From Thermoplasmatales archaeon SW_10_69_26 (lineage in GTDB: Archaea; Thermoplasmatota; SW-10-69-26): DNA of 45,569 nt. Positions 1 through 45,569 of the stretch are shown here, one piece after another. The position numbers and the translations under genes were made by a program. Numbering within the stretch: position 1 is the first letter of the stretch; each line of letters opens with the position of its first letter. Under the pieces are notes generated by a model, which had not been told where the DNA came from, did not search any database, and worked only from the letters and a program-made list of their open reading frames with translations. Location: contig PXUB01000006.1 in assembly GCA_003009755.1 (NCBI GenBank), positions 1-45,569 on the forward strand, in the 5' to 3' direction.

Positions 1-85
1 AAGGCGTTGCGGGGTCTTGTCCAAGTGGGGCGGGTGACGCGCGAGCAGTTGAAGGGTGGGGCGGAGGCGGAGTTATATTGAAAGC

Positions 86-600
86 CCACGGTCAGCACCC
101 TCGACAGAGACCGCTGCGAGGTGTCCACGAGGTCTGCGATGGCGAGCGGTCTCTGGCGATTCGACACGGCCTCGGTGGTATCCACGGTCGGCCGTGCTCT
201 CGCCAGAGACCACCTTGACGTGTCCACGAGGTCCCCGACGGTGCCCGGTCTCTGGCGATCCAGCCGGATCGAAGATCCGGTCTCTGTTCGTGTACGCGAT
301 CTTAAATCCACTGTCGGTACACGATGGCGCGACGCGAGCATCGAGCCTCACGGTGGCTGCGAGGCTAGCGATGCTCGCGATTCGGACGAGCTCTCTCGCG
401 GTTTCCCCAGCTCGTCCTCTCTACGCGATCGTCGTTATATCCATTGGAGGTAGACGATCGCGTAGACGCTGTCACGCGACCATCGGACGAGCGCTCGACA
501 CCGTCAGCGATGGTCGCGATTCGGCCGGATCGAAGATCCGGCCTCTGTTCGTGTACGCGATCTTAGATCCACTGTAGGTACACGATCGCGTAGACGAACA
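86..600. repeat. Tandem array of hairpin cassettes containing duplicated cox3 3' ends
   Basis: 263-325 matches 524-586 at 60/63 nt. cox3-end copies lie at 435-467 and 302-328 (minus). Stems: 546-562/584-600, 523-543, 475-485/508-518, 420-433/453-466, 384-392/409-417, 333-343/369-379, 264-280, 200-211/247-258, 165-171/190-196, 101-115/145-159. GTGTCCACGAGGTC occurs at 121-134 and 220-233. Confidence 0.9.
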
Positions 601-1363
601 CCCAAACCAGGTCAACGAAGTGCCAGTAGATCGCGGCGGCTTCGAGGAGCACGTGGCGTTCGGCGTCGAACTGGTCGTGCACGAACGCCCGCCAGGTGAC
701 GACGCCGAGCACGAACAGGCCGGCGAGCACGTGCAAGCCGTGGGTGCCGGTGAGCAGGTAGAAGGTCGTGCCGAACGGGTGCGTGGTGAGGGTCAGGCCC
801 TCGTGGACCAGGTGGTAGTACTCCATCCCCTGGCCGACCATGAAGATGCCACCCAGCAGGAGCGTGAGCAGCATGTGGCCCTTGAACGCGCTCCGATTGC
901 CGATCCGGAGGGCGCTGTGGGCCCAGTGCATCGTGGCGCCGCTGAACAGCAGAACGATCGTGAACATGCCCGTCGTCCCGATCGGGAGATGCGGCGTGCC
1001 TTCCGGTGGCCACATCGCGGCCGTGTCCGCGAAGTTGTAGTACGTCGCGAACAGCGAGCCGAAGATCATGATCTCGCTGCCGATGAACAACAGCACGCCC
1101 CATCGGCCGACGCGGGGGCCGGTGCCGACGCGGTCGTCGAACCACTCGACGTCCTCCCGAAGCCAGCCGAGCCCGGAGACGGCGAACGCGAGGAACCCGA
1201 CGATCAGCATCGGACCGATGCGCAGCTCGCCCAGGCCCGGGTCCCACACGGTCGGGCCGGGCACGATCAGGCCGAGGCCAAGCAGCACGACCCCGAGGCC
1301 GAAGGCCAGCGGCCACCAGCTCTGGTGCGGGAGCTCGTAGGCTTGGGTCTCGGCGTCAGCCAT
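563..1363 (-). CDS. coxC: Cytochrome c oxidase subunit III
   Basis: Hydrophobic 266 aa with LFIGSE, TGTHGLHV and YWHFVDLVW motifs; abuts the cox1 stop. Confidence 0.95.
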   Translation of the reverse strand: MADAETQAYELPHQSWWPLAFGLGVVLLGLGLIVPGPTVWDPGLGELRIGPMLIVGFLAFAVSGLGWLREDVEWFDDRVGTGPRVGRWGVLLFIGSEIMIFGSLFATYYNFADTAAMWPPEGTPHLPIGTTGMFTIVLLFSGATMHWAHSALRIGNRSAFKGHMLLTLLLGGIFMVGQGMEYYHLVHEGLTLTTHPFGTTFYLLTGTHGLHVLAGLFVLGVVTWRAFVHDQFDAERHVLLEAAAIYWHFVDLVWVFVYAIVYLQWI

Positions 1364-2947
1364 CTAGGACGCCTCCTCGGCTTGGACAGCCGGGGTCCCA
1401 GGGCCCGGGCTCTCGGGAACCCAGTCGTCTTGCTCCCACTCGGGCCGCTGTTCGCCGCCCCACGGGTCCTCGTGCACGACCGGTCCGGCCGTGAAGGACC
1501 AGAGAGCGTTGATCATGAACACGAGGATGCCGGCTCCGATCAGGAAGCCGCCGACCGTGGACGCCTGGTTCATGCCGGTCCACCCGGCGCCCGCGGCGTA
1601 GTCGAAGATGCGTCGCCGCATCCCCTGCAGCCCGAGGACGAACTGCGGGAAGAAGGCAACGTTGAACCCGATGAACATGAGCCAGAAGTGGATCTTCGCC
1701 ATCGCCATGTTGTACATCTTGCCGGAGAACATCCGCGGCCACCAGTAGTACAGGGCCGCGAAGATGCCGAACATGGCGCCGCCCACCATCGTGTAGTGGA
1801 AGTGAGCGACGACGAAGTACGTGTCGTGAACGTGCAGATCGAAGGGGACGGCGGCCAACATCACGCCGGTGATGCCGCCGATCACGAACAGCCAGATGAA
1901 GCCCATCGCGTGCAGCATCGGTGGCTTCAGGTCGATGACGCCGCCCCACATCGTCGCCAGCCAGTTGAACACCTTGATTCCGGTGGGGACGGCGATCACC
2001 AAGCTCATCGCCATGAACCCGAGATCTGCGGCGGGGTTCATGCCGGTCGTGAACATGTGGTGGGCCCAGACGAGGAACCCGAGCGAGGCGATGGCGATGA
2101 TCGCGTACGCCATCGAGTGGTACCCGAAGATCGGGCGGTTGCTGAACTTCGACACGACCTCGCTCAAGATCCCGAACGCCGGTAAGATCAACACGTAGAC
2201 TTCGGGATGCCCGAAGAACCAGAACAGGTGTTGGTACAAGATCGGGTCGCCACCTGGCCCGGTGAAGAAGGTGGTGCCGAGGTTGCGGTCGAACAGCAGG
2301 AAGGTGAAAGCGATCGTGACGACGGGCAGCGAGAACAGCAACAGCAGCGAGGTGGCCATCTGCGCCCAGCAGAACAGAGGCATGTTGTGGATCTCGACGT
2401 CCTCGCCACGCATGCCGAAGATCGTGGCCAGGAAGTTCACGCTACCGAGCGTGCTCGCCACGCCCAGCAAGATCAGCCCCATCAGCCACAGGTCCAGCCC
2501 GGTGTTGGGGTCGGCGACGGACAAGGGCGGGTAGCCGGTCCAGCCGACGTTGACGGTCGTGATGCCCGGCACGATGAGCCCAGCCGAGATCATCAGCCCG
2601 GCCGGTGGGATCAACCAGAACGAGAGCGCGTTCACGCGCGGGAACGCCATGTCCGGGGCTTCGAGCATCAACGGCACGAAGTAGTTCGCGAACCCGGCCA
2701 GTGCTGGCTGGATCCACAGGAAGATCATCAGCGTGCCGTGGAGGCTGAACAGCTCGTTGTACGTGCCCCCACTCATGATGTCCTGACCCGGGAAGAACAG
2801 CTCCATCCGAACGAGGAGCGCCGCGACCCCACCGATGATGAAGAACGCGAAGGCAGCCCAGAAGTACAGCAGACCGATGTCCTTGTGGTCGACGGTGGTG
2901 AGCCACCGCTTGATGCCCTCGGGGTTCTCGTGGGCGTCCTCGGCCAT
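1364..2947 (-). CDS. coxA: Heme-copper oxidase subunit I, A1-type
   Basis: TTVDHKDIG, WFFGHPEVY, VWAHHMF and VAHFHY metal-ligand motifs. Confidence 0.97.
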   Translation of the reverse strand: MAEDAHENPEGIKRWLTTVDHKDIGLLYFWAAFAFFIIGGVAALLVRMELFFPGQDIMSGGTYNELFSLHGTLMIFLWIQPALAGFANYFVPLMLEAPDMAFPRVNALSFWLIPPAGLMISAGLIVPGITTVNVGWTGYPPLSVADPNTGLDLWLMGLILLGVASTLGSVNFLATIFGMRGEDVEIHNMPLFCWAQMATSLLLLFSLPVVTIAFTFLLFDRNLGTTFFTGPGGDPILYQHLFWFFGHPEVYVLILPAFGILSEVVSKFSNRPIFGYHSMAYAIIAIASLGFLVWAHHMFTTGMNPAADLGFMAMSLVIAVPTGIKVFNWLATMWGGVIDLKPPMLHAMGFIWLFVIGGITGVMLAAVPFDLHVHDTYFVVAHFHYTMVGGAMFGIFAALYYWWPRMFSGKMYNMAMAKIHFWLMFIGFNVAFFPQFVLGLQGMRRRIFDYAAGAGWTGMNQASTVGGFLIGAGILVFMINALWSFTAGPVVHEDPWGGEQRPEWEQDDWVPESPGPGTPAVQAEEAS

Positions 2948-27771: not shown

Positions 27772-27954
27772 CCGGTCAACGCTGCTGTGGTGCAATCAGG
27801 GTCTATGGGCGAGGGTCTGCAAGATCAGAGACCGCCATGGCGCAATGTTCGCGGCGGTCTCTGACTTCACCCGAACGCTCGTCACCGCCGTATCCGCGAG
27901 CGTTCGGGTTCGTTCAAATCCGGTCAGGCGCCGCTATGGCGTAGTAGAAGACTA
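27772..27954. repeat. Three-hairpin cassette with duplicated tRNA 3' end
   Basis: 27912-27925 is a perfect inverted copy of tRNA 27962-27975; stems 27869-27881/27897-27909 and 27825-27836/27853-27864; CTATGGGCGAG at 27803-27813 and 27952-27962. Confidence 0.85.
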
Positions 27955-28029
27955 TGGGCGAGACCGGATTTGAACCGGCGACCTCCCGGTTATCAGCCGG
28001 GTGCTCCAGCCTGGCTAAGCTACTCGCCC
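27955..28029 (-). tRNA. tRNA-Ile(GAT)
   Basis: GGGCGAG/CTCGCCC acceptor stem, CCCGG-CTGATAA-CCGGG anticodon arm, GGTTCAAATCC T arm; no encoded CCA; TTATAG ~27 nt upstream. Confidence 0.97.
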
Positions 28030-45372: not shown

Positions 45373-45556
45373 GAGGGGGGGTCACGGAGACCGCTCCCCC
45401 TCGATTTGGTGAACATTTTCTGGCCGACCGCTCGTAGGGGGAGACCGTGGGACCGGAAATGTTCTGGTGCGCCGGTCTGAGGCGGGCAATCTTGCTGTAC
45501 GGATCGAAGATCCGTACGCAGCCGAGACCGGTCTGCGTGGCAGACCGGTGCTCGGC
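45373..45556. repeat. Chain of four hairpins related to the cox3-end cassettes
   Basis: Stems 45373-45379/45396-45402, 45411-45423/45453-45464, 45497-45517 and 45521-45556; CGGATCGAAGATCCG is identical to the cores at 265-279 and 526-540. Confidence 0.75.
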
Positions 45557-45569
45557 CGTTGTCGCCCCC

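Follow-up and report, generated by a model that had tools for sequence, protein, structure and literature searches.

Why should the last codons of a protein gene be repeated behind the gene itself, stop codon included, and why should hairpins separate the copies? The question is raised by cox3 in the genome of the uncultured salt-crust Thermoplasmatales archaeon SW_10_69_26 (2.8 Mb, 69% G+C, 49 contigs, 95% complete; its contigs are called C1-C49 here, and the genome itself G000). The window analysed is the first 45.6 kb of contig C6 (PXUB01000006.1, positions 1-45,569), all coordinates given without a contig label are those of the whole window, and cox3, which lies downstream of cox1, is read on the minus strand from 1363 to 563 (PF00510, E 7.6e-38), so that minus is the gene strand throughout. 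The array behind cox3 is real and non-random and appears to be polymorphic, and it is a member of a genome-wide family of hairpin units rather than a peculiarity of cox3. In the following we describe its parts, trace the family in this genome and beyond, relate it to the tRNA-linked repeats (TLRs, also RtT) of Escherichia coli, and weigh how such units may have arisen.

On the gene strand, the last codons of cox3 (VFVYAIVYLQWI and the stop) are followed by an inverted copy of TGTTCGTCTACGCGATC, GAG, a first hairpin (B), the linker GAATC, a second hairpin (C), 7 nucleotides (nt) and a second gene end. This second end runs from GTCTACGCGATC to its stop and is followed by its own perfect inverted arm, B', GAATC and C'. 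Beyond C' there is a third cox3 end, truncated at its 5' side, whose inverted arm is that of the first, and then two further B/C pairs. The parts are as follows, where a stands for a coding arm, a' for an inverted arm, B for a Y-type and C for an X-type hairpin:

563..1363, minus strand: cox3 coding sequence, 266 amino acids (open reading frame (ORF) and PF00510); its last 30-38 nt are the anchor that is copied downstream.
546..600, minus strand: hairpin A1 (a with a'), in which 584-600 pairs with 546-562 (17 nt, 94%, one mismatch).
523-531/535-543, minus strand: hairpin B1 (Y3 type, CCGGATC ttc GATCCGG), 9 bp, 100%; linker GAATC at 518-522.
475-485/508-518, minus strand: hairpin C1 (X type, CGCGACCATCG), 11-bp stem, 100%.
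420..468, minus strand: displaced cox3 end no. 2, stop 435-437, YAIVYLQWI*.
384-392/409-417, minus strand: hairpin B2, 9-bp stem, 100%; then linker GAATC.
333-343/369-379, minus strand: hairpin C2 (X type, CGCGAGCATCG), 11-bp stem, 100%.
285..329, minus strand: displaced cox3 end no. 3, stop 302-304, VYRQWI*, 5' side truncated; its inverted arm 285-301 is identical to the 546-562 arm.
263..280, minus strand: hairpin B3 (Y3 type, like B1); then linker GGATC.
200..258, minus strand: hairpin C3 (X type), 12-bp stem GCCAGAGACC.., loop containing GTGTCCACGAGGTC.
165..196, minus strand: hairpin B''' (Y2 type), 7-bp stem with the conserved 18-nt loop GACC..CCGA, then linker GAATC; one of 17 Y2 hairpins.
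101..159, minus strand: hairpin C''' (X type), 15 nt, 93%; the final cassette before the end of an insertion sequence (IS).

The stop codon of cox3 is at 563-565 and those of the displaced copies are at 435-437 and 302-304, i.e., at spacings of 128 and 133, and the loop of A1 consists of the last 6 codons of cox3 and its stop. Displaced end no. 2 is identical to the gene at 26 of 30 positions, its 4 differences all falling at codon position 3, and its segment 453-466 pairs with its own inverted arm at 420-433 in 14 of 14 positions; end no. 3 matches the gene at 21 of 23 positions, stop codon included. The stems of C1 and C2 differ by a swap that is compensated, since both remain 11 bp long and 100% paired. 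Between the two outer B/C units (100-160 and 199-259) the likeness is 80%, and GTGTCCACGAGGTC is found in both, whilst unit 1 resembles unit 3 over 75 nt (repeat D1, 255-329 against 516-590, 92% identical). The initial annotation of this stretch, made from the letters alone, had described the three stops and their spacing of 128-133, the A-B-linker-C architecture, the coding second copy with four synonymous differences, the matching inverted arm, the compensatory swap between C stems and the common loop core of the two outer units, and on all these points it read the locus correctly.

Such an accumulation of hairpins is not expected by chance. With a stem of at least 9 and a loop of 3-45, there are 9 perfect hairpins in 86-600, whereas 1000 dinucleotide shuffles have 0.23 on average and never more than 3, and the single-strand DNA fold of the array has an energy of -153.1 kcal/mol against -110.7 +/- 5.5 in shuffles (z = -7.7). 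Neither is the array peculiar to this assembly, since contigs of a halite metagenome run (X1, the probable source, which may be the same data) tile it at 74-292, 285-553, 524-575 and 546-1087, with 0-2 differences each. A mitochondrial origin of the stretch was considered and dropped, as the window has 64-74% G+C, its cox3, cox1 and cox2-like genes use the standard code and the genome has 2.8 Mb.

Pieces of the cox3 array made up of arm, linker and arm match many sites in the genome, where 186 perfect hairpins have stems of 12 bp or more (26 in the shuffled genome) and where 56 chains of at least three hairpins and 189 of two are found. Hairpin B1 has 30 near-copies genome-wide, eight of which (C1, C22, C27:6096, C34, C43 +/-, C44, C45) have an internal mismatch or an asymmetric core, and the arm of C2 with its linker is seen again at C38, C39, C29 and C17. 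Two types, Y1 and Y2, are recognised by a conserved loop that is closed by stems of varying sequence. There are 20 Y1 hairpins (loop GAGC..GCGA) and 17 Y2 hairpins (loop GACC..CCGA; 165-196 is one of them), whereas reversed-loop controls give 1 and 3, respectively. Among 15 aligned Y2 copies one loop is closed by several different stems, in which both partners have changed at 4 of 8 pairs, the pairing being there by construction as the set was selected for stems. Their orientation is strict, as 9 Y1 and 4 Y2 hairpins lie 3' of tRNA genes in sense, none in antisense and none upstream. In sense orientation, the same hairpin modules stand behind no fewer than 9 protein genes and, of 56 tRNA calls, behind 16, each time with displaced gene-end copies. 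The proposal in the initial annotation of a small non-autonomous element with a target-complementary arm thus stands as far as the non-coding nature and the complementary arm are concerned, but not as an element specific to cox3.

Behind protein genes, 23 of the 4779 ORF ends have their final 30 nt repeated within the next 700 nt at 23/30 or better, as opposed to 1 in the permuted control (some matches are tandem coding repeats, which were set aside). A copy of at least 18/24 with at least two perfect hairpins in between is found at 21 ORF ends against 3 in the control, and one at 20/24 with the same two hairpins at 11 against 0. By eye, the plan of cox3 recurs at loci on C22, C40, C42, C27, C17, C10 and C32, i.e., gene end, partly pairing inverted arm, GAG, Y, G(A/G/T)ATC, X and copy, where copy and paired segment start only a few bases apart; the likeness of unit 1 to unit 3 is seen at both cox3 and C40. 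In 10 copy pairs from 9 loci we counted 32 differences, of which 26 affect codon position 3 and 3 each positions 1 and 2 (P = 3.5e-8 against 1/3). Left out of this count were C1:134177/134191 (tandem coding repeats), C2:1015 and C31:29017 (duplicates around N runs), C46:32606, C38:50214, C19:23674 and C1:71279 (frames in repetitive genes), C40:1978 (which looks like the common tail of neighbouring acidic ribosomal proteins) and C14:23786. As the differences concentrate at codon position 3, coding constraint acted on one or both copies of each pair as they diverged, and the suggestion made earlier for cox3, that the internal copies are former functional gene ends, gains support. As a separate observation, the second unit at C40:34269-34292 has a hairpin of gene end and inverted arm with the Y1 loop motif GAGCGCCAGCGA, the first GA of this loop coming from the TGA stop codon, and the same 12-mer is the loop of a hairpin in the tyrV TLR of E. 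coli.

The main anchors of the family are tRNA genes. ARAGORN made 57 tRNA calls, several of them dubious, of which 56 have enough flank, and 16 of these have a copy of their last 16 nt (15-16/16) within 450 nt downstream, mostly 93-120 nt away. A tRNA unit starts with the tRNA itself (..GTTCGA|ATCC, T-stem, acceptor), a spacer and an inverted copy of that region, and continues with GAGAACC..GGTTCGA, X, GA, Y, GAA and a displaced copy that begins in the T-loop; GAGAACC..GGTTCGA is an inverted T-arm, with GA in place of TC, followed by the 5' half of a direct T-arm. The corresponding motif GGAT-GAGAA(C/G)C..GGTTCGA occurs 5 times in the genome, each time at a tRNA array, and is absent from 86-600. 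At tRNA-Arg (C32) and tRNA-Leu (C14) the repeated target block is identical, its non-functional loop included, whereas the X/Y hairpins between copies differ, which argues for separate additions and not for plain tandem duplication. The window itself holds a second example of the family at its tRNA-Ile gene (27955-28029, minus strand), where the unit at 27825-28029 consists of an inverted T-loop/T-stem copy (GACCGGATTTGAAC), Y-like and X-like hairpins and a short displaced acceptor end (CTCGCCCATAG), in the same order of parts as at cox3.

These units have a counterpart in E. coli. According to PMC8144298, TLRs were first described in 1978 and are given there as having 'no known function'; in E. 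coli K-12 they number 22, spread over ten loci in tRNA or rRNA operons, as units of 100-180 nt that stand in tandem, 1-5 per locus, in sense and directly 3' of the stable-RNA gene, the last 18-19 bp being identical to the end of the upstream gene. The group includes the 178-bp repeats of tyrT/tyrV and RttR, and has an Rfam entry (RF00391, 'RtT RNA'). In the tyrV units of E. coli K-12 we find the target end, a spacer, the inverted arm GGGGAAGGAT, GAGAAGC..GGTTCGA, the GAGCGCCAGCGA hairpin, another hairpin, AATCC and again the target end, and thus both GGAT-GAGAA..GGTTCGA and the GAGC..GCGA loop. In the literature searched, TLRs are reported solely from tRNA and rRNA operons of E. coli, and the motif is printed nowhere. 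We considered GAUGAG..CGA as a hammerhead-like element and dropped this reading, since by eye the core C3/U4 is absent and Rfam shows no ribozyme.

Outside E. coli, a Verrucomicrobiota contig has five 127-nt units behind tRNA-Ser, to which RF00391 gives a full-length match of 37.4 bits (E 1.5e-5; below the gathering threshold of 45) and whose parts are the same as those displayed by the RF00391 consensus, and on a contig of 'Candidatus Saliniplasma' tRNA-Arg is followed by units of 115 nt. With one genome scanned per species, GGATGAGAACCCT..GG..TTCG was found in at least 118 stretches, the matches listed including Verrucomicrobiota, Bacteroidota, Proteobacteria, Paenibacillus, Thermoplasmata and others, and at 10 of the 14 loci checked there is a tRNA 3' end just upstream on the same strand. 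In the phylum, G000 and G097 alone among 301 genomes have the exact TLR motif, and none of 5 family relatives does, which makes the exact string too strict to map the family. In the genome studied here the tRNA units score only 17.8-18.5 bits with RF00391, 18.5 being the best score of the whole genome (gathering threshold 45), and in window 1-1500 Rfam returns only two rows, both at chance level (E 4.4 and 6). Among the outcomes that the initial annotation had named as telling against its reading was a match to an already described repeat family, and here the answer is divided: the tRNA-anchored form matches TLR/RtT, the cox3 array itself fails RF00391.

SW_10_69_26 is the sole member of its genus, and five other genomes of the family were compared (G001-G005). 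Three of the 6 family genomes have displaced cox3-end copies, i.e., G000, G003 (2 copies) and G005 (4 copies), and the flanks in G003 and G005 also show B-like (CCGGATC..GATCCGG) and X-like hairpins with G(T/G)ATC linkers. G002 has hairpins and no cox3-end copy, G001 and G004 have neither, and four class-level relatives have no convincing cox3-end copy (a lone 16/24 match lies at 495 nt). By eye, the inverted arm tracks the codons of each genome. Besides, G002 has a partial second cox3-like 3' fragment at the start of one contig (L035, i.e., G002:C150:1-1730; residues 193-263, 37% identity), which could be a paralogue or a displaced longer fragment.

Nine of 11 halite metagenome runs, from three studies, contain part of the stretch. 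In a run of another study (X3), one contig joins 200 to 564 with 16 letters in between that are 547-562, and so has cox3 and its inverted arm directly before the last B/C pair and no displaced copy; a second contig of the same run shows a different module order. The net difference is one further feature of the array:

201..546, strand not applicable: block of 346 bases missing from the related strain's contig, from B1 through C3 with all displaced gene ends; both its ends share CTCT (AGAG on the gene strand).

These variants are indications, not proof, of array polymorphism. Searched with the cox3 protein, metagenome contigs gave distant relatives and no alleles, the near-full-length matches having at most 41% identity and mostly soil-type names, and one short segment (L054) reaching 49%. 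The comparison of cox3 flanks proposed in the initial annotation speaks for its reading in two respects: the copies recur in other genera, and the X3 contig is without the 346-base block.

How could such arrays come about? We propose, giving it an even chance of being right, that the units are non-autonomous cassettes carrying an inverted copy of their target, which insert at a fixed junction near the 3' end of a gene by site-specific recombination provided in trans and regenerate that end, with unequal recombination following. Each unit would then start with a regenerated target end, identical from the fixed junction to the end of the gene, and continue with a', the inverted target copy that spans the junction, with the conserved hairpins Y (B) and X (C) and their GA-type linkers and, last, with the older, displaced target end. 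Units would be added singly at the gene-proximal junction, by a site-specific recombinase supplied in trans. In tRNA genes this junction would be at G57/A58-A59 of the T-loop, a position used by many tyrosine integrases, and in cox3 at a site (GGGTGTTC|G) whose likeness to a T-loop is judged by eye. Fixed junction, regenerated target, displaced fragment and proximal stacking together follow the logic of site-specific integration, and the family is found only 3' of conserved genes, in their sense orientation.

Extruded or single-stranded, the cassette may fold via a' into a mimic of the duplex target. As a' spans the junction, it could pair in a single strand with the direct T-arm half on one side and with the target end on the other, leaving the cassette as a side branch, and since the folded strand would rebuild a duplex target we liken it to integron attC sites and to attP of the CTX phage. 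Afterwards, unequal homologous recombination at the repeated gene ends and linkers would rearrange the arrays, both inside one cell and from strain to strain. Where the terminal copy of one allele recombines with the functional end of another, unlike units could be stacked and once-functional copies left behind, and this would explain both the likeness of unit 1 to unit 3 and the near-exclusively synonymous differences.

Several results weigh against this proposal. RF00391 gives no match in window 1-1500 at E up to 10 and the cox3 units are without the TLR motif; no phage record resembles the E. coli unit, the search giving only a Salmonella genome record annotated as RtT; and the identical neighbouring target blocks on C32 and C14 are better accounted for by a target duplicated in situ at insertion than by a copy borne by the element. 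The strain variants are short k-mer metagenome contigs from diverged strains, of 85-91% identity. Compared to an expectation of 2/3, the 26 of 32 differences at codon position 3 have P = 0.054, which is not clearly above selection on the functional copy alone. Nor does the proposal account for the matched ends that one family would need for more than 25 different targets.

The enzyme is a further difficulty. The units are non-coding and no recombinase is linked to the cox3 array, PF00589 having only 3 matches in the genome, on C1, C2 and C19, and none on C6 as far as this contig extends. Three tyrosine recombinase genes do adjoin array-bearing tRNA genes, and their elements use the same T-loop junction. 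Two of these elements, read closely, do not share the ends of the cassettes: one of 4.4 kb at tRNA-Gly (C2:33433-37590, L117; a split tyrosine integrase with ORFs of 214 and 210 amino acids and a DNA methyltransferase-like ORF) appears to be nested in the inverted T-arm copy of a unit and is flanked by the 10-bp direct repeat CCGGGATTTG, and one of 13.7 kb at tRNA-Phe lies next to a separate mini-unit. We therefore rejected the idea of the cassettes as miniatures copied from the ends of the three integrase elements, as the one element seems to be nested in a unit and the other simply adjoins one. The nested element suggests that inverted T-arm copies can serve integrases as harmless landing sites.

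A first alternative, which we consider rather unlikely, does without insertion altogether. Units would arise in place by replication template switching at quasi-palindromes and by unequal crossing-over, with the direct-inverted-direct layout of tandem inversion duplications, and the hairpins would be kept as RNA modules for 3'-end processing, stability or protein binding, roles that have been suggested for some TLR RNAs of E. coli. The tRNA units do consist of a direct copy, an inverted copy with a turn of 2-4 nt and a direct copy, neighbouring target blocks are identical on C32 and C14 with their loop included, whole units are identical within the Verrucomicrobiota, E. coli and G005 arrays, and all units lie in sense and 3' of genes; the TLRs of E. 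coli, moreover, are transcribed and bind Hfq and CsrA in vitro (PMC8144298). Copying in place is nevertheless not expected to put mutually unrelated X/Y hairpins between identical target blocks, nor would it account for the same X/Y families at dozens of unrelated loci and in other genera. The loop between target and a' is, in addition, not a local palindrome and has motifs common to different loci (CCAAG, by eye), and an a' pairing with the tRNA's own 3' end would compete with tRNA folding.

It is improbable that each unit is the scar of a full-size plasmid or provirus, of which the interior was lost and the att arms were left between the regenerated and the displaced end. A regenerated target with a direct displaced fragment is the signature of integrase-mediated islands (Islander, PMC4383910), tandem integration is known in archaea (PMC8371274), and the 4.4-kb and 13.7-kb elements sit at the same tRNA junctions in this very genome. 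Independent deletions, however, would not yield so narrow a unit size (~100-130 nt) nor the same modules across targets and domains, and X/Y modules are not at the ends of the two integrase elements that were examined closely.

Still less probable is that the hairpins are similar to REP/BIME or PATE sequences, moved as single strands by an HUH Y1 transposase (RAYT or the TnpA of IS200/IS605). This would suit a genome in which chains of hairpins with short conserved linkers are so common and in which, by eye, many contig ends resemble IS1341-type right ends holding a Y3-like hairpin. Yet the HUH and IS200/IS605 machinery that the initial annotation had advised looking for was not found, PF01797 (Y1/HUH) and PF07282 (TnpB) giving 0 matches each in this 95%-complete genome whilst control genomes gave matches; this family makes no target duplication, whereas 15-50 nt of target are repeated here; and the orientation relative to the gene is strictly sense. 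Finally, that the array is an assembly artefact at a repeat-rich contig end, as its distance of 85 nt from the contig start, the break of the contig within an IS and the double occurrence of D1 could suggest, is very improbable given the X1 contigs that tile 74-1087 with 0-2 differences, the distinguishable D1 copies (92%) and the similar arrays inside long contigs elsewhere in the genome and in relatives.

The outer border of the array is formed by the following feature:

1..100, plus strand: 3' end of an IS1595-type transposase and IS terminus, stop at ~78-80; it adjoins the array, and the contig breaks within this repeat.

Bases 1-80 are the last 26 codons of the transposase ORF, which is convergent with cox3 and cut by the contig start, and a full copy is found at L001 2190-3119 (PF12762 4e-28, plus PF12760); the statement in the initial annotation that no transposase is encoded in the window has to be corrected accordingly. 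IS1595-type elements (PF12762, PF12760) border hairpin arrays in at least three places (window 1-100, L001 2190-3122, L008 ~1480-1520 and both ends of C39), and the terminus ..TCAGCACCCT directly abuts a hairpin, so that the arrays may be preferred insertion sites of this IS. At the other end of the window (~45440-45569) there is a repeat with ACGGATCTTCGATCCGT and two N, which recurs at C3:46519 and at other contig ends, and the contig is therefore bounded by repeats on both sides. Another multi-copy, non-coding repeat, ending in ..GCCGGCAGTCTAG and with the Y3-like hairpin CCGGATCTTCGATCCGG, breaks many contigs (C1, C4, C20 on the left, C29 on the right) and is found also at C14:16700-16830 and C41:38700-38830; by eye it resembles an IS1341/TnpB-type right end, yet PF07282 was not found in the assembly.

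TLR/RtT sequences have been known from E. coli for decades, and neither an origin nor a function has been agreed on. Four observations now make their origin testable: units with TLR order and motifs stand behind about a quarter of the tRNA genes of this archaeon, one of their motifs is found beside tRNA genes of many phyla, in this lineage the same modules stack behind protein genes with the reading frame preserved, and the stacks appear to differ between co-occurring strains. If the units are mobile, they would be a class of very small gene-end-targeting elements with no gene of their own, and would give rise to variable 3' flanks, broken contigs and partial genes called in error; if they are immobile, they would be a conserved 3'-end structure common to both prokaryotic domains. 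Tentatively, and with more doubt than belief, we extend the insertion proposal to TLR-like units at large, as cross-domain, enzyme-less 'att-only' cassettes whose folded inverted arm bridges the junction, so that host or foreign recombinases would insert them into the 3' ends of tRNA genes and, in this archaeal lineage, of conserved protein genes and rebuild these ends. If true, this would also explain the tRNA-linked repeats of E. coli; an earlier proposal of TLRs as integration remnants may exist in the older literature.

Compared to known systems, the cassettes are similar to REP/BIME, to REPINs with their RAYT and to the PATEs and MITEs derived from IS200/IS605 in being short extragenic hairpin arrays with defined linkers, 3' of genes, but they differ from these in that no Y1 transposase was found, in their single rather than alternating orientation (13 sense, 0 antisense at tRNAs) and in the duplication of the target end. 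With integron attC cassettes and the attP(+) of the CTX phage they would share a one-strand hairpin that mimics a duplex target, a likeness of working only, together with the proximal entry of new units that push older ones outward and cassettes that may be gene-less; their targets are gene ends, as opposed to attI or dif. With the integrative islands that tyrosine integrases place at tRNA/tmRNA genes there is likeness in a split target that is restored, a displaced 3' fragment at the far end, tandem accretion and a T-loop junction, and the cox3 array likewise has regenerated and displaced target as direct repeats. Unlike islands, the units are of ~100-130 nt and non-coding, include an inverted target copy, have many targets including protein genes, and show no linked integrase.

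The closest likeness is to the TLRs. The tRNA-anchored units of this genome have the same part order and motifs as the tyrV units of E. coli, and the cox3 array uses the hairpin families of these tRNA units; in it, as in TLRs, a unit closes with a repeat of the 3' end of the gene upstream (18-19 nt in E. coli), and inverted arms (546-562, 420-433 and 285-301) are followed by the internal hairpins B and C. What sets it apart is its place behind a protein gene instead of a tRNA or rRNA gene, with copies that keep the reading frame and the stop, the order of its hairpins, which run Y then X, and the absence of the inverted-plus-direct T-arm motif. We speak of the same kind of array and not of a TLR member, because both the Rfam model and the tRNA anchor fail here; as such, the cox3 array is an archaeal, protein-gene-anchored variant of the TLR/RtT class.

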